Part shown: positions 5,479-54,786 of the stretch, one piece after another | How the letters are laid out: every line of letters starts with the position of its first letter | How positions within the stretch are numbered: position 1 is the first letter of the stretch | Assembly: GCA_019873725.1 (NCBI GenBank) | Contig: JAIOAS010000002.1 | Span: forward strand, 1,012 to 65,011 | DNA length: 64,000 nt | Origin: Chloroflexota bacterium | GTDB lineage: Bacteria; Chloroflexota; Anaerolineae; B4-G1; SLSP01 | Direction: 5' to 3' | The notes under the pieces: generated by a model | The model's database searches: none | Seen by the model: only the letters and a program-made list of their open reading frames with translations | Told to the model about the DNA's origin: nothing | Made by a program: the position numbers and the translations under genes

Positions 5479-6279
5479 ATGAAAGAAAGCATCTTTTTGG
5501 AACGCGAAGTAGATCACGCGCGGCGCATTGGACTGTCGGAACGTCGGACCGGGATGTTGCGCCGGACGTTGGCGTTGAAACGGGAAGGATATACCCCCAG
5601 GCGCATCCGTGTCCAGATGTGCAAGGCCAACGTCACCTGGCGTGTGGCGCTGCGGACGCAGGAGGAGTTGGAACAGGAATTAGGCGTGGCGTGGGAAGGT
5701 GGGGTTTACGTCCCTGACAGTCCCGCTGTGCCCGCCGAGCAAGCGCAAGCCGTGGCCGAGGCCGGACGTGAACAGGCGCGGGGTAGCAACAAGCACCTCC
5801 GCGCCCAGTACGGTCTGCACAATGGCAGCACCGCGCCATACGGCTACGTTTTTGGCCCGGACATCACCATCAAGACCGCCGACGGGCAATCTTTGACCGG
5901 ACACAGCTTAGTCCCTGACCCAGATACAGCGGTTGTCGTAGCCGACATCTTCGCACAGTTCATCGGTGGGGCGTCGCCGTATACCATCGCCGCCGACCTG
6001 AACCGGCGCGGCATCGGCAGTCCCAACGGCGGACGCTGGGGCGAGGCCAACGTGCGCGACATCGTGCGCCGCGCGCCGCTGTACTCCGGGTACGTTGTCT
6101 ACCACGACGCGGCCCACAAGCAGGCGCGCTGGACGGGGATGCTGTACCCCGGCCAACACGAGGCCCTGATCGATTGGGAAACCACCCTGGCAGTCCTGGC
6201 TGTCACCGGACGCACATTGGAATGGACGTTTGGCCCGACACGGGAAGAAGCCACGCTTGCGACACCGGAGGTAGCCTGA
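5479..6279 (+). CDS. HTH + serine-recombinase 'Recombinase' domain protein lacking resolvase catalytic domain
   Basis: APYGYVFGPD...LVPDPDTAVVVADIFAQFIGGASPYTIAADLNRRGIGSPNGGRWGEANVRDIVRRAPLYSGYVVYH matches the Pfam Recombinase (PF07508) consensus. No S-Q-Y catalytic motif. N-terminal HTH-like RRIGLSERRTGMLRRTL. Confidence 0.55.
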   Translation: MKESIFLEREVDHARRIGLSERRTGMLRRTLALKREGYTPRRIRVQMCKANVTWRVALRTQEELEQELGVAWEGGVYVPDSPAVPAEQAQAVAEAGREQARGSNKHLRAQYGLHNGSTAPYGYVFGPDITIKTADGQSLTGHSLVPDPDTAVVVADIFAQFIGGASPYTIAADLNRRGIGSPNGGRWGEANVRDIVRRAPLYSGYVVYHDAAHKQARWTGMLYPGQHEALIDWETTLAVLAVTGRTLEWTFGPTREEATLATPEVA

Positions 6280-18387: not shown

Positions 18388-19875
18388 ATGAGTATGCACA
18401 CGAATGACAAACGCAAAACCGTTTTACGCATCGGCCTTCTGCTGCTGGTCACTGGACTGGCACTGTTGGCGCTGGCGGTGTTCGTCACCCCGGCAGGCGC
18501 GTGCTGTACGCCGCCGGAGAACAGTTGTTGCGGTGCTCCTACCAGTGGCTGCTTCAAGTGTGCCAGCGGTGGTTCTGGCGGTGGAGGAGGCGGTGGAAGT
18601 GCAACGCCGGTTCCCCCTGCACCAACGCCTGGCGAGGGTGGTGGCGGCGGCGGTACACCTGCGCCACCGCCTCCTACCGCGACACCGCCGGCGGGCTTGC
18701 CCGGTGGTGGTTTCTACCGGATGAGCTGCGACGCGCTGATTCCCGGCTGTCCCCACGACTGGACGGTGGTCTTGTGGTGGTGTATGCCGAGCGGCCAGTG
18801 CTACGTGGTGCAAGCGCGCTGTGCTGCCGCCGGGGAATGTGACCTGGCGACGCCCACGCCACGTCCCTCGCCAGAGCCAGGCGAGGGCAGTGAATGGCCG
18901 TGCGAAGATGTGCCCGATGTGTACCCTGGTGGCATTGACCAGACCTGCGATGACTGGCAGTGGAACATCGATGTGCAAGTCCAGATTCCGCCCGCGCAAG
19001 TGCTGCGCAATCCCTGGCCGCGTTCGCTGGTGGGCTTGCCAACCAAAATCTGGTACACCGGCGCGCCCAACCGTGTCGAAGCCTTTTCCACGGGCAAGGC
19101 GTTCCCCTGCAACGTGGACTACGGGGCAGCTTACAGCAGTACCGGCGATGTGCCGGCGTGTCCTTCACCGGTGGGTCAACCCACGGAAGGGACGCGGGTG
19201 AATCTGCAACTCGGCGCGGCCTGGCAACGCTGGACACAAGGGGCAGCAGGGGTGTACGGCTTCACCCCGCCGTATGCATCGCTGATCTCCGTGGGCGACC
19301 GCGCCTGGAATGGCGGCGGCAGTACCATACCGGGCAACTACCTGGAACACACCTTTCAGACTTCATCGTATGGCCTCACCGCCAACGGCCCGCGCTGGAA
19401 CCCGGACTGCCAGGACCGCAACTGTACCTGTGACGAACGGGTGCTGGCCTGGGATATGCCGGCGTATCAGGGCGGGGTGCAGACCTGGTGGTATCCGCAG
19501 TGGACGTGGAAGTACGACGAACTGCAATGCACACGCCGCGAGTGGGGCGACTGTTTCTACCGCGCCGAGCCGCCGTTGGGCATCTCCGCGCGCGGGTGCA
19601 GTTCCGGGGAACACACAGGGGAAGCCGACTGGTATCAGTTGGAACAATGCGTGGAATGGCGCTGGCGCAACATCACGGGGCCGCTGTTTGGCTGTTCTGG
19701 CGAGCAGCAAGGCGCGTGGTGCGTCTACGACTTGCGCAATCTTGGCTTTCAGCCAATGGTCACCTGGGCCGCCGCGCAGACTGCCGGGGCCGATGCCAAT
19801 GGGACGCAATGTGGCAGCTTCACGCCGGGTCTGGCGATTCCCGTCATCGAGGTGCAGGCGGTGTTAGAGCCGTGA
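18388..19875 (+). CDS. Cys/Trp-rich secreted or anchored hypothetical protein
   Basis: TM/signal (LLLLVTGLALLALAVFV), then CCTPPENSCCGAPTSGCFKCASGG, a poly-Gly/Pro linker, and more than 30 Cys and many Trp in the remainder. No known domain recognised. Start at 18388 or 18394. Confidence 0.45.
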   Translation: MSMHTNDKRKTVLRIGLLLLVTGLALLALAVFVTPAGACCTPPENSCCGAPTSGCFKCASGGSGGGGGGGSATPVPPAPTPGEGGGGGGTPAPPPPTATPPAGLPGGGFYRMSCDALIPGCPHDWTVVLWWCMPSGQCYVVQARCAAAGECDLATPTPRPSPEPGEGSEWPCEDVPDVYPGGIDQTCDDWQWNIDVQVQIPPAQVLRNPWPRSLVGLPTKIWYTGAPNRVEAFSTGKAFPCNVDYGAAYSSTGDVPACPSPVGQPTEGTRVNLQLGAAWQRWTQGAAGVYGFTPPYASLISVGDRAWNGGGSTIPGNYLEHTFQTSSYGLTANGPRWNPDCQDRNCTCDERVLAWDMPAYQGGVQTWWYPQWTWKYDELQCTRREWGDCFYRAEPPLGISARGCSSGEHTGEADWYQLEQCVEWRWRNITGPLFGCSGEQQGAWCVYDLRNLGFQPMVTWAAAQTAGADANGTQCGSFTPGLAIPVIEVQAVLEP

Positions 19876-20010
19876 GCTAGTTGCTGGTTGCTGGAAGCTC
19901 GAAGCTGGAAACTGGAAGCTGGAAAAGCCAGTGACCAGCAACCAGCAACCAGTAACCAGTAACCAGTAACCAGCTTCCAGCATCAAGTATCCAGCTTCAA
20001 GTATCAAGAA
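19876..20010. repeat. CTGGTTG/CTGGAAG inverted tandem-heptamer hairpin element
   Basis: gctagttgctggttgctggaagctcgaagctggaaactggaagctgg ... ccagtgaccagcaaccagcaaccagtaaccagtaaccagtaaccagcttccagc. Confidence 0.65.
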
Positions 20011-20030
20011 TCTCACAAGGAGGAACGTTT

Positions 20031-20420
20031 ATGAACAACATATCTTTATCAGGAACGGTGGTTCGGCGGCGGGTGTCGCCGGATCAGACGACGGTGTATC
20101 GGGTGCTGATCCCCCGTCAGCCGGGGATGTTACCGAATCCCGACGGCAAGAACTTCGACGCCATCGATGTGTGTTTCCCGCAAGCCGTGGGCAATGCGCC
20201 ATCGTGGCGGCAGGGTGACCAGGTGGAAGTGGCCGGGTTCTTGCAGCAGCGCGACACGCGGGAGAACCTGGTACACTTGCTACGGCGCGCCGAGGGCCTG
20301 GGCGATGCGGAGCGCAATGAACTCGCGGCGAACGCGCAGGGCTTTGTGCAACAGGCCAAGGTCGAGGTCGTGGCGACGCAGTGGCGGTTTTTGGGGAGGA
20401 GGGAGGAAGAGAGGAAGTAA
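20031..20420 (+). CDS. OB-fold (SSB/PriB-like?) hypothetical protein
   Basis: MNNISLSGTVVRR...YRVLI...DAIDVCF...GDQVEVAGFLQQR resembles the N-terminal beta-strands of SSB/PriB OB folds. Good RBS aaggagg. Confidence 0.3.
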   Translation: MNNISLSGTVVRRRVSPDQTTVYRVLIPRQPGMLPNPDGKNFDAIDVCFPQAVGNAPSWRQGDQVEVAGFLQQRDTRENLVHLLRRAEGLGDAERNELAANAQGFVQQAKVEVVATQWRFLGRREEERK

Positions 20421-20516
20421 CTCGACTTCAAGCAGCTTCGCACGTGCGGCTCTGTGGCTCTAGCCCTGGGCCTGATTTCAGATGTACCGGACGAAGCCCC
20501 TTCGCGTGCGTCACGC

Positions 20517-20567
20517 CACAAAAAAGTCGCCCCGGCTCAGGGATATACATCCCAGGAGACGGGGCTA
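20517..20567 (-). terminator. intrinsic terminator (minus strand) downstream of FGE remnant
   Basis: Minus-strand reading gccccgtctcctgggatgtatatccctgagccggggc followed by gacTTTTTTgtgg. Confidence 0.45.
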
Positions 20568-20699
20568 TTCTATCTTCGTCCGGCCTGTGGAGACCACAGG
20601 CGCGGCCAGGAGTCAGCCGCGCTTTCTCTCTGGGCGTTCGACTGACGCCGAACACCCTACCTCGGCCGCCAAGCCCGAAAGCCGGGCGGCATTTCTGGC

Positions 20700-20830
20700 A
20701 GAGCCGCAGAGAGGAATGAGCCGCCACACACACCCGCAACCCGGTGTCGTCGTTGTTGTCGTTGTTCCTGTTCCTGTGGTCGCGGCACGCGCAGCGGAGA
20801 GTTCGGCTGCCCCTACCCGCAACGGCGAAG
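20700..20830 (-). pseudogene. duplicated 3'-terminal remnant of the FGE-domain gene
   Basis: ~100 bp at ~85% identity to 20981-21075 (gagccgccacacacacccgcaacccgg...gtcgcggcacgcgcagcggaga). Minus-strand translation preserves the FGE C-terminal motif LRCACRD...GLRVCVAA. Confidence 0.45.
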
Positions 20831-20873
20831 TTGCAGGCAAGGGCACTATACGCCAGAGACAACAGATGTCAAA

Positions 20874-20921
20874 TGCCCAAAAAACCGTTTTGTAGCGGCC
20901 CAAGGGGGGTACCCCCCCTTG
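20874..20921 (-). terminator. terminator-like palindromes after CHAT-FGE gene
   Basis: caaggggggtacccccccttgg (G6-TA-C7 palindrome) plus the adjacent caaaacggttttttgg hairpin/T-tract on the minus strand. Confidence 0.4.
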
Positions 20922-20957
20922 GAACCCCCCAAGACCAAAGAACCAAAGGCCAAAGAT

Positions 20958-23327
20958 TCAAAGGGCAAAGGTGTGAGAGAAAGGAGCCGCCACACACACC
21001 CGCAACCCGGCGTCGACGTTGAGGTCGAAGTTCCCGAACCTGAGGTCGCGGCACGCGCAGCGGAGATACTCCTGGCTGTTCCAATATGCCCCGCCCCGCG
21101 CAACACGGTAATCATTCGAGCGCATATCCTCGCGCCCGTCGTCGGGCCGGTAAGGGTAGGTGAACTGCGGCCCCTTCCATTTCGGCCCCCAGCGCGTGCT
21201 CGTCCACTCCCACACATTGCCCGCCATGTCCGCGCACCCGTAGGGGCTGTCCCCCTGCGGCGAATACCGTCCCACTGGCGTGGTGCCTTTCACATTGTTG
21301 CCAAAATTGCACAATCGCTCTGTCGGCGGATCATCGCCCCACGGCCAGGTCCGTCCATCCGTCCCCCGCGCCGCTTTCTCCCATTCCGCCTCCGTCGGCA
21401 GGCGAACAATGCAAGAAGCGCGCGGCAGCTCTTCTGTCACCAGAATACCCCCGCGCCACACCTTGATCTTGCATCCGGCGTCTTGTATCTTTTCTGTCAG
21501 CCATTTGCAGTAGGCCACCGCCTCTTTCCAGTAAAGGCCTCTCACCGGGTGCTCGTCCTGGCCGAAGGGAAACTGCTTATTTTTCCAATAATACGGCGTC
21601 CTATCATGTCCCGTCTCCTGCACGAAAACCCCATACTGCGCGTTCGTCACCGGGTACTTGCCGATATAATACTCCGGCAGGTCAATAGTTCGCTGCGGCG
21701 TTTCCCACTCAAACTTGTACCAGTATGGTTCCTTAACCTGCCTGCGCAGCGCCGCCGCCTGTTGCGCCGTCGTGCCCATCCAGAACTTCCCCTTCGGGAC
21801 AAAAACCAACTCCGGCTCCCAACCCAGGCGCGGCTCCACGCCCTGGCGTGGTTCCTCCCGCCGATCGGGCTGTACTTTCCCTGCCGTTTCCTTCGGCTCC
21901 TTTCCCCCGGACGGCTGCACCTCCGTCGGCGACGTCGGCTCCTCCCGTGGCCGGCGAAGCATATCGATAAACCCATCCACCTTGATAGCCGTACTGGCGC
22001 TTTTCTCACCGGCTTTTTCACCAAGGCGGAACATCAAATCGCCGAACAACAACATCCAGGGAAGATCGCGCCGCACCTGCGCCAGTGTGGGATTATCGGC
22101 CAATCTGTCGAGCAAAACTCCGGCAATTTCGCGGAAAACGGCGCTGCGGGAAGGATCGTCCCGCCATGCTGCAAGCTGGGTGCGGATCGAGGGCCAGAAC
22201 TTCGGCAGTTCTATGTCGGCGGCTTGCACCCGTCCAGATTCGTTCACATGGAGCCAGAGTTGCCCATCTTCGCGCCGCATAAAGAGCGTTGGCACATAGG
22301 CATCGCTGCACCAGGCCGCATCCAGAGTGCGGCGCGCCGCATTCAGCGCGCGATCCACTACCCCGTCCAGCATCAGTTTTTTGTAGAAAATCGGCGTCAT
22401 ACGCCGCGCCGTGTCGATGTCCACAAAGTCCTGCATCGCCACCACTGCCGGGACACCAGCTTCGATCAGCCTCGGACCTAACCCGGCAAAAGCGTCCAAA
22501 GTTGCGCGCGTCGCGCTGTGACAGGCCGCCAGAAAGACCAGGCGCGGGCGCTTCTCCCCCTGCCGCTGAATAAGGGTGGCGAACTCCTTATCATCGACGC
22601 GCTTCACCTTACCATCATCGCCCTGCAAATAGAGCGCGGCCTGCCCGCTTTTCTGGCTGACACTTCCATGCCCCACAAAGTGCAGCACGTGATAGCCGTC
22701 ACCTTCACCGAGCGCCTCATTCAGGCGATCCAGTGTGATAGGGGCGGGAAGAGGCGTCACCTCGACGAACCGCATACCCCCTTTTTTCTTCGGGGGCAGA
22801 AAGTCAACAAAAGCTTCCTGCACCAACGCGTGTTCCTTCGCCACATCGATCTGCATCAGCCCGAGTTTGTCCTGCAAATCATCAGGATTCGAAACAACGA
22901 CCAGCACCCGAATGGGGTGAGCAGGGAGCAAGTCAGGCCGGGGAAGAGACAGAGGCAGGTGGCGTGAGAAAGGGGTCTTGTCGTCGGTTGCCAGCCAGAC
23001 ATCGCCGTCGCGCAGCAATTCCCAGGGCAGGCTATGGAGCTCGGCAGCGCCCGGCTCAATCCACAAACGAATCCGACGTTGCTCGTGACGGGCGCGCGCC
23101 GCCACCCACATATCGTGCAATCCAGGATCGGCAAAGAGCGCCGTAAAGAGGTCTTTTCCGTACTGCACCGGATCGCCACCGCTTCCCCAGAGGGGCAGGC
23201 CCTGCGTCGAGAAATCCCCGCTACACTCGCCGCCCTCCCCAAGTTTGACCGTCACATGATACACTCCCGTTCCCTTGGGAGCAATGCGAATTTCGAAATC
23301 CCAGAAAGCTTCCGGCGTCGTCTCCAT
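20958..23327 (-). CDS. CHAT (caspase-like) protease domain fused to FGE/SUMF1 (formylglycine-generating-enzyme-like) domain
   Basis: CHAT: HFVGHGSVSQKSG...LVFLAACHSA (His/Cys dyad). FGE C-terminus: GNVWEWT...YRVARGGAYWNSQEYLRCACRDLR...GLRVCVAA. Start METTPEAFWDFEIRI with RBS ggaggt 8 nt upstream. The ORF-track start at 23408 is probably an upstream extension. Confidence 0.75.
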   Translation of the reverse strand: METTPEAFWDFEIRIAPKGTGVYHVTVKLGEGGECSGDFSTQGLPLWGSGGDPVQYGKDLFTALFADPGLHDMWVAARARHEQRRIRLWIEPGAAELHSLPWELLRDGDVWLATDDKTPFSRHLPLSLPRPDLLPAHPIRVLVVVSNPDDLQDKLGLMQIDVAKEHALVQEAFVDFLPPKKKGGMRFVEVTPLPAPITLDRLNEALGEGDGYHVLHFVGHGSVSQKSGQAALYLQGDDGKVKRVDDKEFATLIQRQGEKRPRLVFLAACHSATRATLDAFAGLGPRLIEAGVPAVVAMQDFVDIDTARRMTPIFYKKLMLDGVVDRALNAARRTLDAAWCSDAYVPTLFMRREDGQLWLHVNESGRVQAADIELPKFWPSIRTQLAAWRDDPSRSAVFREIAGVLLDRLADNPTLAQVRRDLPWMLLFGDLMFRLGEKAGEKSASTAIKVDGFIDMLRRPREEPTSPTEVQPSGGKEPKETAGKVQPDRREEPRQGVEPRLGWEPELVFVPKGKFWMGTTAQQAAALRRQVKEPYWYKFEWETPQRTIDLPEYYIGKYPVTNAQYGVFVQETGHDRTPYYWKNKQFPFGQDEHPVRGLYWKEAVAYCKWLTEKIQDAGCKIKVWRGGILVTEELPRASCIVRLPTEAEWEKAARGTDGRTWPWGDDPPTERLCNFGNNVKGTTPVGRYSPQGDSPYGCADMAGNVWEWTSTRWGPKWKGPQFTYPYRPDDGREDMRSNDYRVARGGAYWNSQEYLRCACRDLRFGNFDLNVDAGLRVCVAAPFSHTFAL

Positions 23328-23502
23328 ACCCCTTACCTCCAAACACTCCACGCCCACGCCCAATCCACCGATCTGCCTATAAGTATACCCATCCTCCCAC
23401 CCGCGCAACTCCTCTCCCCATATCTAGCGCCCCCTTCTTGCCTCCTTGCTTCTTCCCCGTTATACTAGGGGCATAACATTTGGCGTAACGAGGAACAGCG
23501 TG

Positions 23503-24963
23503 ATGCGCACAGACTTGCTTTACTTCAACGGCATTGACGGCGATACCGGCAGCTACGACCTGCCCCCGATGTCCGCCGAGGAACTCGCCAAGGTAATCCT
23601 CGGTGAAGCGACTCCCCAAAATATCCTTGAATTACGCAGGCGGCATGAGCGGGAAACGGCCAAGCATCTAGGCCCGGAGGTGGATCCCAACAAGCTGGAT
23701 GAAGCAGGCTGGGGCGTGATCTTCCCCAAATACCCGGAAGAGGAACGCCAGAAAAAGGTGGAGGCGATCCGCGAGGCACTTCAGCCGCTGCTCCAATTGC
23801 GCGAGCAACAGGCCGGTGAACGCTTCGCCGCGTGGTGTCAGGGCACGGGCAAAGACTTTCAGATCGGTGATGACAAGAACAAAAACAAATATCTGGCGCG
23901 GCAAGGTATGGGGCCTGGCCCCGCCGATCCGAATATAGTGCCTTACTATCTGTTGATCGTGGGTAGCCCGGCCGACATCCCCTACGAATTCCAATCGCAA
24001 CTCGATGTCGATTATTTCGTTGGGCGCATCCACTTCGAGACGCCAGACGAATACGCAGCCTACGCCGCCAACGTCGTGGCAGCCGAGACAGGTCCAAAGA
24101 AGCAGGCGCGCAAAGCCGCATTCTTCAGTGTGGCCAATTCCCACGATCGCGCTACTCAACTTGGCGATACCAAACTCACCCAGCCACTAGCTGACAAGAT
24201 GCGCACCGGCTATCCTGATTGGGCTGTGCAGTTGTATCCGCCAGACCAGGCGTACAAAGCGACGTTGGCCTCGCTGTTGGGCGGCGCAGAGACACCGGCC
24301 TTCCTCTTTACGTCCAGTCACGGGATGAAGTTCGCCAAAGGTAGCCCACGCCAGCTTTCGCACCAGGGTGCGCTGCTCTGCCAGGATTGGCCCGGCCCGG
24401 AGGAGTGGACAAAACCCCTCATCCCTCAAGACTTCTACTTTGCAGGTGACGACTTGACGTCAGCCGCCGACCTGCATGGACTGGTTGCCTTTTTCTTCGC
24501 CTGTTACGGCGGCGGCACACCGCTCTGTGACGGGTTCGCCCGGCAAGCCCACCCGGGCGGCACATCTACCACGCGCTTCGAGATAGCCCCCTATCCTTTC
24601 CTGGCGCAGTTGCCGGTAAAGATGCTAGGCCGGTCACACGGAGCACTCGCCGTAGTCGGTCATGTGGACCGCGCCTGGGGTTGCTCTTTTGAGTGGGGCG
24701 CAGCAGAAACGCAGACGACCGTCTTCGAGGGCGCAGTGGAGCGGCTGCTCAAAGGCTATCCCATCGGCTGGGCGATTCAATACTTTAACAATCGTTATGC
24801 CAGTCTCGCCGTTATGCTAAATGATGAGCTTAGAGAGATCGACTTCGGGAAGCGCTATGATCCGCCCAAGCTGGCAGAGCTGTGGATAGCCAACAACGAC
24901 GCGCGTGGCTATGCGATCATCGGCGACCCAGCCGTAAGGCTGCCGGTGGACAAAGCCCCCTGA
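23503..24963 (+). CDS. caspase-like (clan CD) cysteine peptidase-domain protein
   Basis: Putative His/Cys dyad FLFTSSHGM ... VAFFFACYGGGT in the order and spacing typical of caspase/gingipain/clostripain folds. Divergently transcribed from the CHAT-FGE gene. Confidence 0.5.
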   Translation: MRTDLLYFNGIDGDTGSYDLPPMSAEELAKVILGEATPQNILELRRRHERETAKHLGPEVDPNKLDEAGWGVIFPKYPEEERQKKVEAIREALQPLLQLREQQAGERFAAWCQGTGKDFQIGDDKNKNKYLARQGMGPGPADPNIVPYYLLIVGSPADIPYEFQSQLDVDYFVGRIHFETPDEYAAYAANVVAAETGPKKQARKAAFFSVANSHDRATQLGDTKLTQPLADKMRTGYPDWAVQLYPPDQAYKATLASLLGGAETPAFLFTSSHGMKFAKGSPRQLSHQGALLCQDWPGPEEWTKPLIPQDFYFAGDDLTSAADLHGLVAFFFACYGGGTPLCDGFARQAHPGGTSTTRFEIAPYPFLAQLPVKMLGRSHGALAVVGHVDRAWGCSFEWGAAETQTTVFEGAVERLLKGYPIGWAIQYFNNRYASLAVMLNDELREIDFGKRYDPPKLAELWIANNDARGYAIIGDPAVRLPVDKAP

Positions 24964-25133: not shown

Positions 25134-28100
25134 TCAGCGGTTTCGACACACGAGCGGCAGATAGACGCGCAGCGGAGAGTAGCCGACAGCCTGTACCTCC
25201 AGTGTGCGTTGCGGCTGTAGAGGGTCGGTGCTGCTGATCCACAGCGTGGTTGTGACCGGCCCGACCTCCGCCGGACGGAAGTCCACCATGGCCGTGCAGA
25301 ATGCGCCCGGCGCCAGCGTTGCCAGCGTGCAGTTGTCTTGCGCCAGGCGGAAGCGGGACGCCGCCGCGCCCTCAAAGAGCATGGTGCGCACTGTGAGGTC
25401 GAGGCCCCCGCTGTTGGTCAGTGTGAAGGGGGTGCGCGCGTACGACAAGCCGACAGCGGCTTGCCCGGCATCGAGCGGGCCGGAGGGGCTGAGGGTCAGC
25501 GCGGGCGGATCGGCTGCACTGAAACTCCAGCTCCTGGTGTTGTTGATCGTGTTCGTGTCGGTGGGCACCACGTCGCTTACTTCACCCCTGAAGGTATAGC
25601 TGCCTGGAGCAGTCGGCGCGAAGGTCGCGCTCAGGTCGTGCCGCTCGAATGGCGTGAGGTGGAGCGTGCTGCGGGCCAGCAGTGTCTCGCCGCCGGTGGG
25701 CGGCGTCACGTACAGACTGAGTGTCGCGGTCACCGGCGCGCCCGTGTTGTGCAGGCGCAGAACGACTGTGTTCGTCATGCCGCGGGCCAGCGTTACCGGA
25801 GCGCTCGTGGTTGGATCGCGCTGCGGTGGCTGCACGCGCAGCGCATCGGCCGGCAGTGCCAGGTCCACCGTCGGCATGGACGCGACTGTCACCTGCACTG
25901 AGGCGCTGACCATCACACCCGCGCTGTCCGCCGCCTCATAGGTCAGCGTATGCGTGCCCGTCGGCAGAAGCACGCCGCTCAAGTTCGGGCCGCTGCCCAG
26001 CGTGCCGGTGGCCGTGCGCCACGTCCCGGTCATCACGATCCCGTCTTCCGGGTCGTAGACGCTGGCCTGGAGCGTCCAGCGCGTCTCCGGCTCGCCGCAC
26101 GCACCGTCTTCTGGCGACCAGATGGCGATCGTGGGTGGCAGGTTGGGTCTCGTCAGCTCGTCAACCTGCCCGGCTGCCAGGCGAAAGCCGTCGGATGCGG
26201 TCACACGCAGCGCCAGATTGTCGCTCACCGGCAGGGCGTTCACCGGCAGCACGACGTGGTCGCCCTCGACCGGCAGGCCGAGCGCCGACCACGTGACACC
26301 GCCGTCGGTGCTGTACTGTACCAGGTTCTGCAGCGGTTGGCCCGCGGGCATATCGCCGGTGGTTTGCCAGCGCAGGGTGAAGGTGACGGCGTCTCCTGAG
26401 CCAGGCAGCGTTGTCCCGGTCACAGGCTCCAGGATTTGTGTGGTCAACGGGCCTGAACCGCTAAAGACTGCTATCGCCGGGCCGGTGTAGGGGTCGTAGG
26501 CTAATTCTAACTGCGGCGGGTCGCTGTAAAGGTTGACGGTCGCCAAGAACGCATCGTAGTCGCGCCCGGCGTCACGGCCCGGAATGGCGTTGCTCAACAG
26601 GACAAAAGATGGAAATCCGGCATCATCGTAGCGCAGGTAGAGGTAACTGAAGTCGCTGTACGAGCAGAGTGGCAGGCCGCTTGACGTGCTCGCCTCAGCC
26701 GTCGTCGCTGCGCTCTGGGTCGGGCTCACAGACGACAGCATCGCAGTTGCCGGCGCCGGAAGTTCTACGATGCGGACCGTATCCGGGATCAGTTCAAAAT
26801 CGAGGCACAGTTCCCGCGTGTATCCCTGCGTAGTTCCAAGTGTCTCGACCCGCCGCGTCTGTCCTGAGATGACCAGCGTGCGTTGGGCTGATGGTGCGCC
26901 AGCAATACCCGTCGCTGTCACTAACGGCGTCAGGGTGCCGAAATACGTCCTAAATGCGTTCACCGTGCTGATGCTGGGCCACCGGTTCAACAATCCCGCG
27001 CCCATGATGTCGTACCACATCGGATTGTCGGTCGCCCAGTAGACGTTGTTGCCCGGAAGGTGACACACGCGACCGGCATCGCACGCCGAGAAGAAGCCGT
27101 TGATGGTTGCACTGCTGGTGGACGGCATGTCCAGGAACACGGTTACGTCTTCCAGCGGCATTCCCAGGTCGGGATAGTTGGGCCAGTTGTACTGTTCGAC
27201 TGTGTTGTACAGCCCGATGCCGTGCCCCATCTCGTGGAAAACGGCCTCCGGCTTGTCCTCGTCCACGAAGATCACTCCGCGGCGCAGCGCCATGCTCGCG
27301 CCGTCGGCTCCTCCTATTGAGCCATGCGGCATCACCGCCACGATAAAGTCGGTTACATCCTGCGGTTGCCCGTATTTGGCCGCATAGGCGTTCAGAAAGG
27401 CGCGCCGTCCCGCCAACTGTGTAGACAAGGAGTTCAGCAGCCCGGTGGTGGTCCAGTGCGTTGTCTTGTGCACCAGAGGCGGCAGCAGGCGCACGTTGAC
27501 CCTGTTGGCGGGAATGGGAAACATGGCCGGGAGGGCGCTTTCCAGCACCGCGGCCACCGGCCCCGCTTTCGCCGCGCCGGACGGAAGCTGGATGGGGATC
27601 ACGGCAATGCGCAGTTCGCGGGCGGGCGGCGCCTGGAAATAGAGCGTCCCCGGCAAGCCGCTCAGTTGCGTCAGGCTGCCTGTACCGCCATAGCCGGTCA
27701 CCCCGCTTGTATCCAACCACACTTCCAGCGTGGCGGCGCTTTTATCGGTGGGCGGCAGGATGAAGTTGACGGTGCTGCGTCCCAGGTTGTTGCCGTTCCG
27801 GCCATAGTCTATGCTGTCGCGGTGCAGCGTCAGACTGCTGCCAGCGGTGGGTTCCACGGTCTGCCCGTCAAACACGGCATAGACATGCACATTGTTTACG
27901 GTGCGGTCGTTGGTGACCAGGTTCAGGCTCAGCAACGTCTCCTTGCCCTGGACTAACTCCCCGGCCCCCGAGGTCCCATATCTCCCCACACTCTGCAGTA
28001 CACGGTAGAAGGGAGAGCCGAGGTAGTTGTTGAGCCAGAACGACGGGAAGACATCCGTATCAGTGCACCAGCGGCCCGTGACGTTAGCTGGCGCCACCTC

Positions 28101-29564
28101 GAAGATCGTGTCGTCCACGTAAGCGCCCCGGCGCAGAAAACCTCGCGGTCCGCTTTCCAGGACGGGGCCGTCCGTGTCGCCGTAGTAGTTGGCCCCGACC
28201 GGGATTTTGTTCTGGCAAAGCCAGGTACCTTCGGTCACCAGCGCCCGGCTGCCCAGGAAGCTGTTGGTCTCGAACGTGGGTGTGGGAGTCTCGCCGAAAT
28301 AGCAGAACCCACTCAGCGCGACTGCATCCATGAACACGTTGCCCTGAAAGACAGCATCCGTGTTTTGGTTCACGGTTACCTGGCCGGCGAAATCATTCAG
28401 GATGAAGTGCGGGTGCCCGGTCGCAGCCATGAGGTTCACCGGGCCGCGAAACGAAGAGTCCTGGATGGTAACTCCTGCGCCAGAGGTGATATACATCTGG
28501 ACTCCACCTGGAACCGTCAGACGGCGGGCTTCGAGCGTCCCTTCGATAGACGGGCAATCAGTGCTAGGGCAGGCTCCCTGAGCGTAGAAGGCTGAGCCGG
28601 TATACTCAACAGTGTTCAAGGTTACCCCTGAATCGACAGCCAACTGGGCGTCCAGGAGGCTCAAATTCGTTACGTCCTGGATGGTCACGTTGCCTTGCGG
28701 CCGGTTAATTTGAAGCGACAGGCCGTCTATATACTGTATTGCCAGCCCGACTGCTGTCACTACCTTCAGGTCCGAGCTGCTGCTGAGGCTTGAGCCGGCG
28801 CTCCCCACATCGAAGCGAAGGTTGGCGTGGGTCAGGTCGGAGAAGCTGTGCGGGGAGTACAGTGAGATCTGCGCCACCGAGATGACCGATTGGGAATCCA
28901 ACGCCAGCGTTCCATAGGCTCTGATCGAGCAGGAGCCTTCAGGCAGCAGCAGCAACTGAGTCTGGGCGATGTTCAGGGTTTTCCCCTCCGGGATGTCAAT
29001 CCCACCAGCGCAGACCACCATGCCTTCAAGGGTCTCGTCGAAGAGCAACGCGCCTGACGCCTGGTCGCCAGTCACAACAGCCTCCGTCGTCAGGGGTGTG
29101 GACGTTTGTTGCAGGTTGTTGTCCGCATCGTAGCGTTCGACGATCACGCTGAACGCATAGGTGCGCGCATCCAGGTTCGCGTGGTGATAGGCGCCGGTGA
29201 AAACATAGTCACCCCCTGGCGCTTGCTCGCGTTTCAATTCGACCTGCGCGCCGCCACCAGCCGGGGTGCCCATCAGGCGATAGACACAGTAAGCGTAGGC
29301 GCAATAGTCGGACAGGTAGTAGCTCAGATGCACGGTTTTAGGGCCGATGTAGGACGCCCCCAGGCTATTGAAGGTCGGCGCGGCGGGCTGGCAACGTGTA
29401 GCGTCGCACGCCGCCTCAGCAGTCGTTTTGTCCGATGGGACAGCTGGCGTCATCGCTGCTTCTGGGTGCGCCGCCGTGCGGGGCGCAGGCCATAACAGCC
29501 AAATGCTTGATATGCTGCTTAAGCACACAATCGCCAATGGAAGAAGGAATTTATGGGGTTTCAT
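25134..29564 (-). CDS. giant secreted multidomain zinc metalloprotease (HEXXH; M6/M64-like), beta-helix and CARDB/ASH-like Ig domains
   Basis: Signal peptide MKPHKFLLPLAIVCLSS. AVFHEMGHGIGLYNTVEQY zinc-binding motif. Right-handed beta-helix-like repeats. C-terminal Ig-like/ASH domains. Alternative upstream start at 29606. Confidence 0.7.
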   Translation of the reverse strand: MKPHKFLLPLAIVCLSSISSIWLLWPAPRTAAHPEAAMTPAVPSDKTTAEAACDATRCQPAAPTFNSLGASYIGPKTVHLSYYLSDYCAYAYCVYRLMGTPAGGGAQVELKREQAPGGDYVFTGAYHHANLDARTYAFSVIVERYDADNNLQQTSTPLTTEAVVTGDQASGALLFDETLEGMVVCAGGIDIPEGKTLNIAQTQLLLLPEGSCSIRAYGTLALDSQSVISVAQISLYSPHSFSDLTHANLRFDVGSAGSSLSSSSDLKVVTAVGLAIQYIDGLSLQINRPQGNVTIQDVTNLSLLDAQLAVDSGVTLNTVEYTGSAFYAQGACPSTDCPSIEGTLEARRLTVPGGVQMYITSGAGVTIQDSSFRGPVNLMAATGHPHFILNDFAGQVTVNQNTDAVFQGNVFMDAVALSGFCYFGETPTPTFETNSFLGSRALVTEGTWLCQNKIPVGANYYGDTDGPVLESGPRGFLRRGAYVDDTIFEVAPANVTGRWCTDTDVFPSFWLNNYLGSPFYRVLQSVGRYGTSGAGELVQGKETLLSLNLVTNDRTVNNVHVYAVFDGQTVEPTAGSSLTLHRDSIDYGRNGNNLGRSTVNFILPPTDKSAATLEVWLDTSGVTGYGGTGSLTQLSGLPGTLYFQAPPARELRIAVIPIQLPSGAAKAGPVAAVLESALPAMFPIPANRVNVRLLPPLVHKTTHWTTTGLLNSLSTQLAGRRAFLNAYAAKYGQPQDVTDFIVAVMPHGSIGGADGASMALRRGVIFVDEDKPEAVFHEMGHGIGLYNTVEQYNWPNYPDLGMPLEDVTVFLDMPSTSSATINGFFSACDAGRVCHLPGNNVYWATDNPMWYDIMGAGLLNRWPSISTVNAFRTYFGTLTPLVTATGIAGAPSAQRTLVISGQTRRVETLGTTQGYTRELCLDFELIPDTVRIVELPAPATAMLSSVSPTQSAATTAEASTSSGLPLCSYSDFSYLYLRYDDAGFPSFVLLSNAIPGRDAGRDYDAFLATVNLYSDPPQLELAYDPYTGPAIAVFSGSGPLTTQILEPVTGTTLPGSGDAVTFTLRWQTTGDMPAGQPLQNLVQYSTDGGVTWSALGLPVEGDHVVLPVNALPVSDNLALRVTASDGFRLAAGQVDELTRPNLPPTIAIWSPEDGACGEPETRWTLQASVYDPEDGIVMTGTWRTATGTLGSGPNLSGVLLPTGTHTLTYEAADSAGVMVSASVQVTVASMPTVDLALPADALRVQPPQRDPTTSAPVTLARGMTNTVVLRLHNTGAPVTATLSLYVTPPTGGETLLARSTLHLTPFERHDLSATFAPTAPGSYTFRGEVSDVVPTDTNTINNTRSWSFSAADPPALTLSPSGPLDAGQAAVGLSYARTPFTLTNSGGLDLTVRTMLFEGAAASRFRLAQDNCTLATLAPGAFCTAMVDFRPAEVGPVTTTLWISSTDPLQPQRTLEVQAVGYSPLRVYLPLVCRNR

Positions 29565-29862
29565 TTCTTCGCTTATCTCCGTTCGATCAGTATTTTTCTG
29601 TGTCACCGACTATAAATGAGTAAACGAAAGGGATATTTAATCTGTATTGTGCCACAAAACATACCGGATACAAGCTAACACTACAGCCTGATTCAAAGCA
29701 CGGCTTGCGCTTACTCCATCAAAACCCGGAGGCCGTGCCGCCTGGCTCTGACTCCCTCGGCAGCGGGAAGTGGAAATGCTATCTGATGGGCCGGAAGAGC
29801 CAGTCATCGATCCTGTATTAGCGGATGGTCAATCGGGAATGAGAGAGGCGGGGTAAAGGCAG

Positions 29863-32800
29863 TCAGCGATTCGCAGGGGGTTGGACGGCGGTGATTTCTT
29901 TCAGCAATTGGGCGGCCTGCTGCGCCAGTTGCACAAAACGCCGTTTGAGTTGTTCCGGCGACTCGCCCTGGATATTCACGAAGAATGGGTCGGTGGGATG
30001 CGGCTTTCTGCCGGCGAGGCGACCTCCCAGCACTTTGAGCAATGGCGCCCAGGGATAGCCATGCCGCTTCAGGCCGGAAATTGCTGTGGCGTCGAACGCC
30101 AGCGGGTAGCCGGTTTGCTCCAACAGACTGGGCTGCTGCCCCAATGCCAGTTCGACCAGCGCGGCATCCAGCAGCAGACGCCCGGCGCGCGCCAGCAGCG
30201 CCTCGCGCTGGATGTGCTGTAGCCGTTCCTGTCCGCGCTGCACGCGCGCCCATTCAGCTTCAGCGGCGGATTGCACCGCGGTTTGTGCCGCGGCGATCTG
30301 CGCTGGCGTCCAGGTGATGTCGCTCTCGGATTTCAGCGCCTTGCGCAGCTCCGCCAAACGTCCTACGGGCTGCAAGTTCCCCGTCTTATCCTGTGTGAAG
30401 TATCCCACCCGCGGCAACGGTTCAGCAATTGCAATGCGCAGGATCGTAGAAGGTACAGCCTTTGATGTTACATCGCCTGCGAGGTCGGGCAAACTCTGAA
30501 GCAATGCGTCCAGCAAGGGATTGCCAAACGTCAGCAGTCGCACGGTGTTGGGATGAGTGTCGAACACCTGACGGTCGAAGGTAACGGCAGTTTGTGCGCC
30601 TTCCAGACTTAGCCAGTAAGCTCCCGCTATCGTTTCGTGAGGCTGGAAGTGCGTTTTTAGCGTAGGCGCTTCAAGGATGGCGGAGGCCATCTCCGGCAAA
30701 TTGAAGGCAACCTGGTTGCCCGCTGCCCCTGTCGCTTCCACTTCGGGATGCGCGGCCCACTCATCGAGGTTTAGCTGCGCCGTTTGCCGATCCAGGGCCG
30801 CGTCAAGATCGGCCAATTCCTGTTGGAGCACTCGCTGCCGCTCCGCGTCGCCGGTCAACGCCACACGCTGGATGGCGCGCCCCACCTGCGCCAGGATGGG
30901 TTGCAGCGGCCCCACAACGTCCTGGAACCAATCGATCCGGTTGTTGAGCGCCTGGTACACTTTGGCTTCGACGGTCTCTTTGTAGAAATAGTTATAAATC
31001 CATACCCGCTCGTAACGCTGCCCAATGCGGTCCACGCGCCCGATGCGTTGCTCGACCCGCATGGGATTCCACGGCATATCGTAATTGATCAACACGCCGC
31101 ACGTTTGCAGGTTCAAGCCTTCGCTGGCCGCCTCGGTCGCCAACAGGATTTTGATCCGTTCGCCCTCGCGGAAGGCGTTTTTCAACTCTTCTTTGGTGAT
31201 GGGCATCCAGGCGTTGCCGTCCCACCATTCGCCGCCGCGCCCGCTATAGCAGGCGACCTGGCTGCCGTATTGCTGCCGCAGTTGCTCACGTAGAAAGTCC
31301 AACGTGTCGGTATATTGCGTAAACACCAGCGCCGTCTCGCGTTGGCGAAATGCGGTCCCCAGATCGTGTTGCAATTGCGCGACTTTGGAATCATGGCCAC
31401 TCAGCGCCTGCAACGCGTGCAGGAAATCTTCAACGTAGGCGATTTCCTCCTGGTACTCTGCCGCGTAGTCTGGATCACGCGCCACGGCGAGGTCTTCGTC
31501 TATATCGAGCGCCAGTACGTCCTGTTCCAGATCATCGTCGTCCCAGAGCAGATCAGCCTGCCCGCGCAGGAAAGCCAGCCGGCGATTCAGGCTGCATTGG
31601 ACAGCGTGAAAGCTGCTGGTGAGCCGCCGGCGGTAGACGGTCATCACAAACCCCAGCCCTTTGCGCTTGGCCTCGTACTTGCGGTAGAAGTTGCTGATGT
31701 ATTCTTCGATGCGCAGGTATAGCTCGCGTTCCTCTTCCCGCATATCAATCCAGATCAGACGAGGGTCGCGGTAAGGGACGTTCTCCCGCAACAATCCCCG
31801 GCGGACATAATCGCGCAGCAGTGGGCGCGTGTTGCGGAAAACCAGTCGGCGCAGCGGTGTCGTGCGTTGAAGCAACTCCGCAGCCAGCGTTTGTGCTGTG
31901 GGTGGCAGTTTCTTGAATCCGGCGGCAGCAGCCTGGGGGTCAGCTTCGAGGACCTGTTGGAGTTGCGCCCAATCGACTGCGCCCAAACGTTGTTGCGCCT
32001 TGTGCGACCATTCTGCGGAGACACCGTCCGCCGCGCCGTCCCCACCGGCCGCGCGTTCGGCCTGGAACATACGAAAGACGAAGTCCCAGTCCGGTTCTTG
32101 ACTGCGCAACTCGGTGTAGAAACGCAGGAAATTGCGCCCGTCAGCGCCCCATTCGCCGCTCAATCCAAGCAACGTGAGCAAATCCCACACTTCGATGGGA
32201 TCGACTTGCATCGGCGTGGCGGTCATCAAGAGTAGGGATTGGGTGCGCGCTTGCAAGCCGCGCAGCAATTCGAGCAATCGGTTGGGACGATAGGTGCGCT
32301 GATCGAGGAAATCTTTGCGGCGGGCGTGATGCGCTTCGTCGACGAGCACCAAATCCCAGGCGGCTGAGGTCAGTAATTCGGCCTGCCGATCCTGGCGCTT
32401 GAGGAGCTGGCTGGAGGCTAACGCCAGGTTGACGCTGTCCCAGGGATTCGGAGTGGATACGGGTTGGATTTGCTCCCAATAATCCACGAAATCCTTGCCG
32501 TTATACAGCGGGACGTTGAGGGCGAACTTCTCGTAGAGTTCTTCCTGCCATTGGCGCAGCACGGACTTGGGCGCGAGGATCACCGCGCGTTTGACCAGCC
32601 CGCGCAGCCAGAGTTCGCGCAGCACCAGCCCCGCTTCGATGGTTTTGCCCAGGCCGACTTCATCGCACAACAGATAGCGCGAGGGGTACGTCTCGACGAT
32701 CTGTCTGGCGACGGCAATCTGGTGCGGCCAGGGCGCTACCGGCGCCGTCGCTGTTCCCAAGCCGGCGCCATTGATCAGGTGTGGCGCATCCTGTAGGAAG

Positions 32801-33621
32801 CGGCTTACCCAACGTTCGCGTTCCACGGCTGAGGCCAGGAGCAGTTGGGGCTTGTGCTCCTCGGTGCGAGAGGGCTTTCCAGGTTCACATTCCAACGGAT
32901 CGCGGTTGGGTGCAGCGTGGGGCGTGTAGCGCAGCAGGCTTTGCCGCGCGGCTTCAGGCACAGGGAGCGAAATCCAATCCGGCTCGCGGTGTTCCCACAG
33001 ACGCTCGAAGCGCGCCACGGCCTCCGCCACCCATAGCCGCCCCTCATTCCACGAACAGAACACCATAAACTGTTCGTAGTTGTGTTCCCAGCCGGTTTCC
33101 GATTCGTTGATGCTGCCGCTAAAGGCGACCTGATGGCCCTCAGCGTCGGTGAAGATACCGACTTTCGGATGGAAGTAGTCGTGGGTGTCGGGCGCGGGGA
33201 GGGGCAAGCCGCCAGGACCTTTGGGGAGCACCACGCGGATGTCCAGGCGCTCGTGGGCTACCAACCAGGCCAACGCTTCCAACCGCGCGCGGAGCAGATG
33301 GTCGGTCAAGGTCTCTGGATCGGGCAAGCCCGGACCCAGGCTATTGGCGACCACATCAGGCAGGTTGTAGCCGGCTTCAATGGCCGCCACATCTTCCCGG
33401 CTGAGTTGCGCGCCGACGAGCAGGCGCATCCGTCCGCCGTTGGCGATGAGGTGCGCCACGCCTGCCGCCGCAATCGCCAGCGCGTGGCTGCTAAAGTAGC
33501 CCGTCATCCGGTCGTAACGCACGCTGGCGGTGAGGGCCGGGATGTAGAAGGTGTGCAGCCGGTCATCGCCGGGACCGTAGGAGAGGCGAAAAGAAAGGTC
33601 TGGCAGAAGATTAGCCATCAT
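29863..33621 (-). CDS. PLD-like (HxK) nuclease domain fused to SNF2/Rad54-family helicase
   Basis: PLD: YFHPKVGIFTDAEGHQVAFSGSINESETG. Helicase: LLCDEVGLGKTIEAGLVLREL, LVDEAHHARR, LLATEAASEGLNLQTCGVLINYDMPWNPMRVEQRIGRVDRIGQ. Start overlaps the upstream stop (ATGA). Confidence 0.8.
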   Translation of the reverse strand: MMANLLPDLSFRLSYGPGDDRLHTFYIPALTASVRYDRMTGYFSSHALAIAAAGVAHLIANGGRMRLLVGAQLSREDVAAIEAGYNLPDVVANSLGPGLPDPETLTDHLLRARLEALAWLVAHERLDIRVVLPKGPGGLPLPAPDTHDYFHPKVGIFTDAEGHQVAFSGSINESETGWEHNYEQFMVFCSWNEGRLWVAEAVARFERLWEHREPDWISLPVPEAARQSLLRYTPHAAPNRDPLECEPGKPSRTEEHKPQLLLASAVERERWVSRFLQDAPHLINGAGLGTATAPVAPWPHQIAVARQIVETYPSRYLLCDEVGLGKTIEAGLVLRELWLRGLVKRAVILAPKSVLRQWQEELYEKFALNVPLYNGKDFVDYWEQIQPVSTPNPWDSVNLALASSQLLKRQDRQAELLTSAAWDLVLVDEAHHARRKDFLDQRTYRPNRLLELLRGLQARTQSLLLMTATPMQVDPIEVWDLLTLLGLSGEWGADGRNFLRFYTELRSQEPDWDFVFRMFQAERAAGGDGAADGVSAEWSHKAQQRLGAVDWAQLQQVLEADPQAAAAGFKKLPPTAQTLAAELLQRTTPLRRLVFRNTRPLLRDYVRRGLLRENVPYRDPRLIWIDMREEERELYLRIEEYISNFYRKYEAKRKGLGFVMTVYRRRLTSSFHAVQCSLNRRLAFLRGQADLLWDDDDLEQDVLALDIDEDLAVARDPDYAAEYQEEIAYVEDFLHALQALSGHDSKVAQLQHDLGTAFRQRETALVFTQYTDTLDFLREQLRQQYGSQVACYSGRGGEWWDGNAWMPITKEELKNAFREGERIKILLATEAASEGLNLQTCGVLINYDMPWNPMRVEQRIGRVDRIGQRYERVWIYNYFYKETVEAKVYQALNNRIDWFQDVVGPLQPILAQVGRAIQRVALTGDAERQRVLQQELADLDAALDRQTAQLNLDEWAAHPEVEATGAAGNQVAFNLPEMASAILEAPTLKTHFQPHETIAGAYWLSLEGAQTAVTFDRQVFDTHPNTVRLLTFGNPLLDALLQSLPDLAGDVTSKAVPSTILRIAIAEPLPRVGYFTQDKTGNLQPVGRLAELRKALKSESDITWTPAQIAAAQTAVQSAAEAEWARVQRGQERLQHIQREALLARAGRLLLDAALVELALGQQPSLLEQTGYPLAFDATAISGLKRHGYPWAPLLKVLGGRLAGRKPHPTDPFFVNIQGESPEQLKRRFVQLAQQAAQLLKEITAVQPPANR

Positions 33622-42852: not shown

Positions 42853-42857
42853 AACAC

Positions 42858-43178: not shown

Positions 43179-43196
43179 TTTCTTGCCCTTCTTCCA

Positions 43197-44210: not shown

Positions 44211-44221
44211 TTGCTCCTTAC

Positions 44222-54768: not shown

Positions 54769-54786
54769 CCCAAGGAGGTAACTCGT

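Follow-up and report, generated by a model that had tools for sequence, protein, structure and literature searches.

The 64,000-nucleotide stretch of Chloroflexota DNA analysed here (contig JAIOAS010000002.1, positions 1,012 to 65,011; hereafter the window) contains, at 20.5-24.96 kb, two protease genes and a predicted RNA gene, which together form a discrete accessory unit inserted at a variable defence-island hotspot. One protease gene encodes a CHAT protease fused to a domain of the formylglycine-generating enzyme (FGE) fold; judged from its sequence, this domain is a ligand-binding scaffold diversified by a diversity-generating retroelement (DGR) and not a formylglycine-generating enzyme. 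The other gene, transcribed divergently, encodes a gingipain-fold protease related to the Pfam family Peptidase_C25, hereafter the C25-like protease. On balance, and with modest confidence, we read this unit as a compact conflict-system module in which a DGR-written CHAT-FGE sensor, a template repeat (TR) RNA and a C25-like executioner would make up a sensor-to-executioner protease cascade. An earlier note on the same DNA had proposed a 789-aa CHAT-FGE fusion, a divergent second peptidase resembling clan CD and a small OB-fold protein, and all three open reading frames (ORFs) are present in the window where it placed them.

The CHAT-FGE gene occupies 20958..23327 on the reverse strand and encodes 789 aa from a probable ATG start at 23327, within a full ORF of 816 aa (20958-23408). 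The protein consists of a small N-terminal beta domain, the CHAT domain, a helical and then charged, Pro-rich linker, and the FGE/C-type-lectin-fold domain. The CHAT domain, a caspase-like protease domain of clan CD (22323..23162, reverse strand), is matched by PF12770 with an E-value of 5e-32 (111.8 bits against a cutoff of 24), and its dyad, His220 (HFVGHG) and Cys269 (AACHSA), is kept in 67 of 67 aligned relatives. Both motifs, together with the Pfam CHAT and FGE-sulfatase matches, bear out the proposed fusion. Orthologs of the protein (P0121-P0127) share 50-93% identity with it, and the clade to which its CHAT domain belongs has an exchangeable C-terminal module, which may be FGE, SIR2_2 (the most common), NACHT, TPR or PQQ propellers. 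The SAVED_CHAT model of PADLOC gives a weak domain-level match (E 3e-10) to the CHAT part alone (residues 227-372 of the 816-aa ORF, profile positions 136-267), and Pfam detects no SAVED domain in the protein; the NCBIfam HetF model matches the CHAT domain at E 8e-18 with 64 bits, far under the family cutoff of 1200. By eye, the sequences of this protein and of the C25-like one contain no signal peptide or transmembrane segment.

The FGE-sulfatase/C-type-lectin-fold domain is encoded at 20997..21815 on the reverse strand (PF03781, E 8e-46, 157 bits against a cutoff of 23.3). Among its sequence matches in the PDB are FGE, EgtB, PorK and TvpA (2y3c), a variable protein of a Treponema DGR, and NCBI names its orthologs 'SUMF1/EgtB/PvdO family nonheme iron enzyme'. 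The catalytic, copper-binding C336 and C341 of human FGE align to an Asn and a gap, which is a strong indication rather than a database-verified result. Inside the domain and 15 nt ahead of the stop codon lies a 92-bp variable repeat (VR; 20975..21066, reverse strand), which encodes 12 hypervariable residues between RCACRD and GLRVCVAA and has a GC-rich 3' end resembling an initiation of mutagenic homing (IMH) sequence. A second 92-bp copy, the TR (20709..20800, reverse strand), has an A-rich core of AAC/GAC codons (HRNRNNDNNDDT). The two align over 92 bp without gaps and with 12 mismatches, 11 of which are at TR adenines (Fisher p=1.5e-8); the template has 19 adenine positions. Adenine-specific mismatches between TR and VR are the defining signature of DGRs. 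As nearly all mismatches fall at adenines in this manner, the end of the gene is identified as the VR and the downstream copy as the TR.

The same arrangement is found in L082, a JGI metagenome locus whose CHAT-FGE protein is 72% identical to that of the window. There, 10 of 11 VR/TR mismatches are at TR adenines (Fisher p=1.3e-7), and in both loci all mismatches are in codon positions 1 or 2. The TRs of the two loci are 2 nt apart and their VRs 15 nt apart; since the VRs of the two lineages differ at template-adenine positions only, mutagenic homing occurred after the lineages split. The segment between RCACRD and GLRVCVAA (11-13 residues) is different in 7/7 orthologs, one of them 93% identical overall, and a scan of 93 sequences for adenine-biased repeats returned the signature in the window and the L082/L092 genotype only. 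The GC-rich 3' end is the same in VR and TR and is followed by two VR/TR-specific differences kept in both lineages. Just past the CHAT-FGE stop codon, 40 nt after the VR, a GC-rich inverted repeat (20887..20935, reverse strand; repeats I1, I3 and I4) with the same sequence in L082 may act as a terminator and/or as a DGR target-recognition hairpin. The earlier note had left the function of the FGE-like domain unresolved; its features are those of a DGR-diversified ligand-binding domain without the catalytic Cys pair.

An ORF-like stretch overlooked in the earlier note (20428-20862, reverse strand) repeats the 3' end of the FGE domain. Its adenine signature, promoter and terminator led us to reject this 144-aa ORF as a gene or pseudogene and to assign the stretch to a TR RNA gene instead. 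A near-consensus sigma-70-type promoter (20845..20872, reverse strand; TTGACA, 16 nt, TATAGT; 11/12 matches), both hexamers of which are found in L082, precedes a predicted non-coding RNA of ~320 nt (20517..20840, reverse strand) that comprises the TR and ~170 nt of structured spacer and ends in a hairpin with a T-run. This terminator-like hairpin is located at 20530-20542, ~170 nt past the TR, and the predicted fold of the RNA has an energy of -159 kcal/mol (z=-4.9 against shuffled controls). The alignment of the TR region (457-461 bp) is 95% identical between the window and L082, compared with ~85% for the flanking genes, and homology ends right past the T-run. No Rfam family matched 19.7-23.6 kb, and scanning metagenome contigs for a TR-specific 27-mer recovered the L082 genotype again and nothing else.

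The C25-like gene is located at 23503..24963 on the forward strand and encodes 486 aa, a longer ORF with a TTG start beginning at 23446. A divergent intergenic region of 175 bp (23328..23502) separates the two protease genes; at 23438-23466 it includes a weak promoter-like site that would serve the C25-like gene (9/12 matches, alone not above chance). Pfam Peptidase_C25 matches the protein partially (E 2e-7, 30.9 bits against a cutoff of 23); no other Pfam domain was found in it and no NCBIfam model matched it. Its AlphaFold model (pLDDT 83, pTM 0.87) has Kgp and RgpB as best Foldseek matches (probability 1.0, E 9e-8 to 5e-5, TM-score 0.41-0.48), with 10-13% sequence identity among the top five structural matches, and SAVED-CHAT and caspase-7 as weak ones; a PDB sequence search with the family profile gave no match. 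The suspected second peptidase of clan CD is, by Pfam and Foldseek, of gingipain fold. His273 (SSHGM) and Cys334 (FACYGGG) are invariant in 48 homologs, as are Gly274, which follows the His, and a C-terminal WTANNDARG...GDPAV motif, and the N-terminus (FNGIDGDTGSY..PPM) is conserved as well; conservation of the catalytic dyads, raised in the earlier note for both proteases, is therefore seen on either side. Just after the catalytic Cys, residues 339-363 are predicted to form a disordered loop whose length varies in the alignment. In caspases, the intersubunit linker that is cleaved on activation sits at the same position.

Homologs of the C25-like protein fall into >5000 clusters, with 55-82% identity to the query among the 120 best matches listed. 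In 185,579 species genomes we found 420 relatives of at least 50% identity, distributed over Chloroflexota, Acidobacteriota, Cyanobacteria, Desulfobacterota, Bdellovibrionota (Bdellovibrio) and others, and enriched in filamentous or multicellular lineages, namely Chloroflexota, Nostocales, Acidobacteriota and Desulfobacterota; IMG/VR viral contigs contained none. Assignment of the protein to EACC1 or Pepco was ruled out, EACC1 being a small domain with a single transmembrane helix (PMC7159879), and so was membership of the PCaspase family, PCaspase being annotated as C14 with H79/C146; the analogy to PCaspase is retained. The terms 'gingipain' and 'C25' are absent from the full texts of PMC8195603, PMC7159879, PMC13581612 and the SAVED-CHAT preprint, and the literature searched holds no description of the family, which is absence of evidence and not proof of novelty.

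Two features recur around C25-like genes elsewhere. Many homologs carry, or are followed by, a small, conserved ~110-aa domain without a Pfam match and a ~250-290-aa protein (L003 9-2153; L045 8254-8589; L049 11956-12696); some versions of these have two transmembrane helices and could be protease-gated membrane effectors, and they do not occur in the window. In cyanobacterial loci (L053, L055, L060-L065, L068, L070, L076, L078 and L080), a gene of ~450 aa with a GHSFG motif lies directly upstream of the C25-like gene. This gene resembles an alpha/beta-hydrolase and has no Pfam match, a CHAT-nSTAND1-WD40 gene follows the C25-like gene and a lipoxygenase gene is often near, an arrangement reminiscent of the alpha/beta-hydrolase effectors, activated by proteases, of Evans et al. 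2025.

We annotated 80 of the 420 C25-like genomic loci with purpose-built profiles and counted neighbours in the 42 that have 5 kb or more of sequence on each side. Of these 42, 33 have a CHAT domain no farther than 5 kb from the C25-like gene, 30 have an nSTAND1 NTPase within that distance, and 36 have CHAT and/or nSTAND1; the pairing of CHAT and C25-like genes that the earlier note had seen in the window is conserved in other genomes. Representative partners have, by Pfam, the architectures CHAT-nSTAND1-WD40 (Nostoc), caspase(C14)-nSTAND1-WD40 (Oscillochloris) and nSTAND1-WD40 beside a separate CHAT-SIR2, as in loci of the L044 or L049 type, and CHAT/caspase-nSTAND1-TPR is among the further ones. 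One locus, L006, has a fuller set made up of CHAT-FGE, nSTAND1-FGE, a second CHAT protein and the C25-like protein. Patatin, muramidase, M23 and lipoxygenase genes are also found near C25-like genes.

Two relatives mark the borders of the unit in the window. Nucleotide homology to L085, the closest such relative (93% in the OB-fold gene), ends at the stop codon of that gene, and L085 does not have the module; homology to L082 runs from the TR terminator through the stop codon of the C25-like gene and no further. From these limits the module is a discrete accessory unit and the OB-fold gene a bystander. At the same site, relatives have a type III restriction-modification (R-M) system, NB-ARC-TPR and dNK genes, or an MFS transporter, and the window and L082 have the CHAT/C25 module. 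Past it, DISARM-like helicases follow in L082, and in the window a 1490-aa secreted protein and then an Hma/HEC-01A-like/Ppl island; GC content is ~0.6 all through the region. Compared with its L082 counterpart, CHAT-FGE of the window has a dN/dS of 0.35 and the C25-like gene one of 0.23; the latter gives 0.20 against L002, and these values indicate that both protease genes are kept by purifying selection. Synonymous divergence is a mosaic: comparing 20961-23327 of the window with 10001-12355 of L082, we obtained a dS of 0.62 for the CHAT part and of 0.22 for both the FGE part and the C25-like gene; the linker (21975-22252 of the window) is not alignable to L082 by blastn. Together, these two observations suggest that recombination has swapped the protease half.

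Under the conflict-system reading, the diversified lectin-fold domain would bind an invader-derived molecule inside the cell, as has been proposed for FGS/C-type-lectin (CLec) sensors (PMC8195603, PMC10907252). Ligand binding would cluster the CHAT domains and switch them on, a step modelled on the filament activation of SAVED-CHAT and on the induced-proximity activation of initiator caspases. The CHAT protease would then cleave the C25-like protease, supposedly made as a latent zymogen, with the disordered loop past its catalytic Cys, at the place of the caspase intersubunit linker, as the likely site; once activated, the C25-like protease would degrade cellular proteins and thereby stop the infected cell from growing or kill it. 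We infer the ligand, the clustering that activates CHAT, the order in which the proteases act, the cleavage between them and the cell-death outcome. Precedent comes from SAVED-CHAT, which cleaves and activates a second caspase-like protease, PCaspase, giving abortive infection (bioRxiv 10.1101/2023.06.23.546230), and protease-gated death effectors are common (10.1101/2025.11.14.688446). Furthermore, nSTAND1 and DGR association has been reported for STAND-FGS systems (PMC8195603), and DGR-diversified CLec sensors include a CHAT-TIR target (PMC10907252). The protease-based defence or cell-death idea of the earlier note survives as the best reading and has a direct experimental precedent in SAVED-CHAT, its abortive-infection or cell-death part standing as conjecture.

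Several observations weigh against this reading. Neither the C25-like protein nor the protease pair is recognised by any PADLOC model. A profile made from 60 nSTAND1 ORFs found no nSTAND1 in the six-frame translation of the window, nor does the window contain SIR2 or another obvious terminal effector, which most relatives have. Pfam scans of the non-overlapped ORFs of at least 200 aa in the 64-kb window gave no RVT match for a reverse transcriptase (RT), no substantial window ORF matched Avd in Pfam, and in the L082 lineage (L082, L093-L096) neither RT nor Avd is among the genes annotated within 10 kb. Some CHAT-FGE proteins (L083, L084 and L097) have no C25-like gene beside them. Six independent assemblies of the L082 lineage, from different samples, all have the same VR, so there is no sign of ongoing diversification in that lineage. 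Finally, mutual cleavage of the proteases and phage protection by the module enter the argument as suppositions.

Given that no nSTAND1, SIR2 or other class component is present in the window, we regard the unit as a minimal version of a conflict system: it is a reduced, STAND-less form of the caspase/CHAT-nSTAND1-WD40/TPR/FGE conflict systems. The same lack of STAND and effector could point to a reduced or partly disabled version. In L083 and L084 (10001-15889), a distinct 601-aa CHAT-FGE protein is encoded in an operon with stand-alone SIR2_2 and nSTAND1-WD40 proteins and no C25-like gene, from which the C25-like component is frequent and not obligatory; the third case, L097, is a distant CHAT-FGE on a 226-kb contig with fragmented genes and is uninformative. 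As for the RT, an RT-motif regular expression run over 93 sequences gave spurious matches only, and we saw no Avd/HRDC accessory gene close to the TR, whose neighbouring 129-aa gene is the SSB-like OB gene of a Tad operon. From the content of the 64-kb window, an RT serving this TR presumably acts in trans or was lost. Incomplete DGR loci and trans-acting RT/TR combinations are documented for this type of target (PMC10907252).

Among the alternatives, the strongest keeps the same anatomy and gives it a regulatory or developmental role, in which the receptor, tuned by the DGR, would translate endogenous or environmental cues into limited proteolysis, for instance in filament differentiation, cell division or kin recognition; the Nostoc CHAT protease HetF and the 'regulatory pathway tuning' of cyanobacterial DGR targets would be parallels. 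We consider it unlikely. PMC7517822 argues for such a role in DGR targets with CHAT, caspase or kinase domains, and the enrichment of the C25-like family in filamentous or multicellular lineages and the stability of the VR in six assemblies are in line with it. The HetF match counts for it as a domain-level similarity and against it by its score, 64 bits where the cutoff is 1200. It also has to contend with an accessory module that is missing from L085 and sits at a hotspot occupied by R-M and other defence genes in relatives, and with partners in related loci that are conflict effectors (SIR2, patatin and nSTAND1-WD40).

Two further alternatives seem rather improbable to us. According to the first, the unit is a decaying relic of a larger nSTAND1 and DGR system, having lost its STAND NTPase and RT, with a frozen VR and a protease pathway that no longer works. 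Absence of nSTAND1, SIR2, RT and Avd from the window, fixation of the consensus VR in six assemblies and the fuller set in the related locus L006 would all be expected of a relic. Against decay stand intact ORFs and dyads that are conserved across a dS of 0.2-0.6 with dN/dS of 0.2-0.35, and a non-coding TR region that is better kept (95%) than the flanking genes and retains its promoter and terminator; moreover, the VRs of the two lineages differ at template adenines only, so homing post-dates their split.

The second, which we hold to be no more and no less probable than decay, concerns the order of the proteases. The C25-like protein would be an upstream or maturation protease that releases the C-terminal modules of CHAT-X proteins (SIR2, FGE), or the two would be parallel effectors without mutual cleavage. 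It draws on the fact that the C25-like protein is constant and the C-terminal modules of its CHAT partners vary behind a long, disordered, charged linker, on the proteolytic effector release proposed by Kaur et al. (PMC7159879) for related systems, and on the fusion of some C25-like homologs to extra small or membrane-spanning domains. Against this, the sensor-linked CHAT is upstream in the one characterised two-caspase system (10.1101/2023.06.23.546230), the sensor, that is the VR, is on the CHAT protein here, and the modelled disordered loop of the C25-like protein, at the caspase-linker position, would suit a zymogen. The last alternative, that the FGE domain is an enzyme of formylglycine generation or of EgtB-like C-S bond formation and the downstream copy a mere pseudogene fragment, has on its side the strong Pfam FGE-sulfatase match and the NCBI ortholog names and is largely refuted, hence extremely improbable, as both catalytic cysteines are absent, the mismatches are adenine-specific in two lineages (p ~1e-8), the downstream copy has its own promoter and terminator, and DGR variable proteins of the same fold exist, with TvpA (2y3c) among the PDB matches.

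Returning to the conflict-system reading, we tentatively put forward a wider form of it, which we hold to be possible rather than probable. The C25-like family would be a widespread 'universal executioner' of bacterial Apaf-1-like/CHAT sensor systems, wired in this case without an NTPase switch to an initiator whose receptor is rewritable by a DGR in trans from a dedicated TR RNA gene; this would amount to a minimal, reprogrammable sensor, antibody-like in kind, at the head of a two-step caspase cascade within a bacterium. The literature already describes DGR-diversified CLec sensors of conflict systems as well as CHAT-to-caspase cascades; a STAND-less CHAT-VR fusion, a stand-alone TR RNA gene and a very conserved C25-like partner family were not found in the literature searched. 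If the proposed wiring is true, the module would be among the simplest natural cases in which an initiator caspase-like protease is joined directly to a hypervariable receptor and has a dedicated executioner, and it would unite the DGR-written 'antigen sensors' of multicellular bacteria with CHAT-to-caspase anti-phage cascades, hitherto separate fields. With two proteins and one RNA it is small enough for reconstitution, which would address invader sensing by DGR-diversified intracellular lectin-fold domains, ligand activation of CHAT without an NTPase or nucleotide signal, and the role of a conserved cytoplasmic gingipain-fold family that accompanies Apaf-1-like proteins in several phyla. For trans-acting DGR reverse transcriptases, too, the stand-alone TR RNA gene offers a clean case.

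The OB-fold gene (20031-20420, forward strand, 129 aa) lies next to the module. Its product has no Pfam, NCBIfam or PADLOC match, and its structural model (pLDDT 88) finds the OB folds of bacterial SSB and PriB by Foldseek (probability 1.0, E 1e-5), so the fold named in the earlier note is confirmed and its part in the module is not. The ~30 relatives of the protein are all within this lineage, and in every context examined the gene closes a Tad pilus operon, co-directionally, with a varying gene downstream. We ruled it out as a module member for this reason and because it is missing from the 80 other C25 loci. An SSB/PriB-like OB gene at the end of a Tad operon, as in the window and in L085-L091 (Anaerolineae lineage), is an odd location for a fold that binds single-stranded DNA. 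Between a 499-aa gene and the OB gene, the intergenic region (19875-20013) is made up of 7-nt repeats, CCAGNAA and their complement TTGCTGG, which give a long imperfect hairpin, with a predicted RNA fold of -58 kcal/mol (z=-6.4).

On its other side, the module neighbours a composite defence island at 29863-51220, and the defence neighbourhood recognised in the earlier note is accounted for by Hma, an HEC-01A-like AAA_21-Schlafen protein and Ppl. The Hma system consists of an HmaA-like PLD and SNF2 helicase (29863-33621), the HmaB DUF1156 methylase (38952-42008) and the HmaC DUF499 ATPase (45238-48576). Embedded in it are a DUF4276 gene, the AAA_21-Schlafen/AlbA_2 fusion that resembles HEC-01A, a Ppl-like PHP and ATPase protein and an ASCH/DUF7680 protein, along with a second HKD-SNF2 helicase on the opposite strand and two low-GC ORFs (42070-44288) without a family match. 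Between module and island, at 25134-29606, the 1490-aa protein is encoded convergently with the C25-like gene; a hydrophobic segment lies at its N-terminus and an Ig-like domain of the HYDIN/ASH type at its C-terminus, and it is not found in the L082 lineage. At the far end of the window (53964-59329), a gene cluster with RNase III-like, PrimPol, RadC/JAB and DnaN-like (beta-clamp) members is possibly part of a mobile element. At 5479-6279, an ORF with the serine-recombinase 'Recombinase' domain overlaps the start of the Tad ATPase gene region and may be a remnant or reflect a mis-set ORF start.

The systems closest to the module are the NTPase-centred 'conflict systems' of multicellular bacteria, including nSTAND1/FGS, described by Kaur et al. 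(PMC7159879, PMC8195603). By the features of the STAND-FGS/nSTAND1 class, the module has the FGS sensor, the caspase-type effector and the DGR link and lacks the central STAND NTPase. With the DGR-diversified CLec/FGE sensors (Kaur et al. 2021, PMC8195603; Dore et al. 2024, PMC10907252) it shares a cytoplasmic protein that is linked to CHAT and ends in an FGE/CLec domain with a 3' VR, a host from a filamentous lineage, an incomplete DGR locus with the RT presumably in trans, and nSTAND1 in relatives. Unlike these sensors, it has no STAND/MoxR NTPase and no RT in cis, its sensor is fused directly to a protease, a stand-alone TR RNA gene lies beside the target, and its C25-like partner is in neither paper. 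Apaf-1-like caspase/CHAT-nSTAND1-WD40 proteins (PF20703), bacterial forms of which are noted in PMC13581612, are the commonest neighbours of C25-like genes (30/42 loci) and belong to the same CHAT clade at ~35-45% identity; in contrast to them, the window has no STAND NTPase or WD40/TPR sensor, the lectin-fold VR domain being the sensor.

Classical DGRs, such as those of Bordetella phage BPP-1 (Mtd) and Treponema (TvpA), likewise have adenine-specific differences, TR codons rich in AAY, a C-terminal VR of CLec/FGE fold and a GC-rich 3' boundary with a hairpin close by, to which the GC-rich 3' end and inverted repeat of the module may correspond, whereas in the module no RT or Avd accompanies the TR and the target is an intracellular protease and not a surface or tail-fibre receptor. 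The gingipains RgpB and Kgp of Porphyromonas (C25) and the C25-like protein have in common the two-subdomain caspase-like fold and the His/Cys dyad, with a Pfam C25 score above gathering; unlike gingipains, the C25-like protein appears to be cytoplasmic, as no signal peptide, Ig-like domain or C-terminal domain of the type IX secretion system is seen by eye, and its gene is tied to CHAT/STAND genes and not to secretion. Finally, in comparison with SAVED-CHAT/PCaspase (type III-B CRISPR/CBASS; Steens et al.), the module has a DGR-variable lectin-fold sensor in place of SAVED, which binds cyclic oligonucleotides, a second protease of two-subdomain gingipain fold (His273/Cys334) in place of C14, and no sigma factor, inhibitor or kinase gene, and its cascade is drawn by analogy, with the conserved adjacency of the two gene families and the disordered loop past the catalytic Cys as indirect support. 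Like SAVED-CHAT/PCaspase, it co-encodes two clan CD proteases in a cytoplasmic, defence context, with the sensor fused to CHAT and a stand-alone second protease of caspase fold that could be activated by cleavage.

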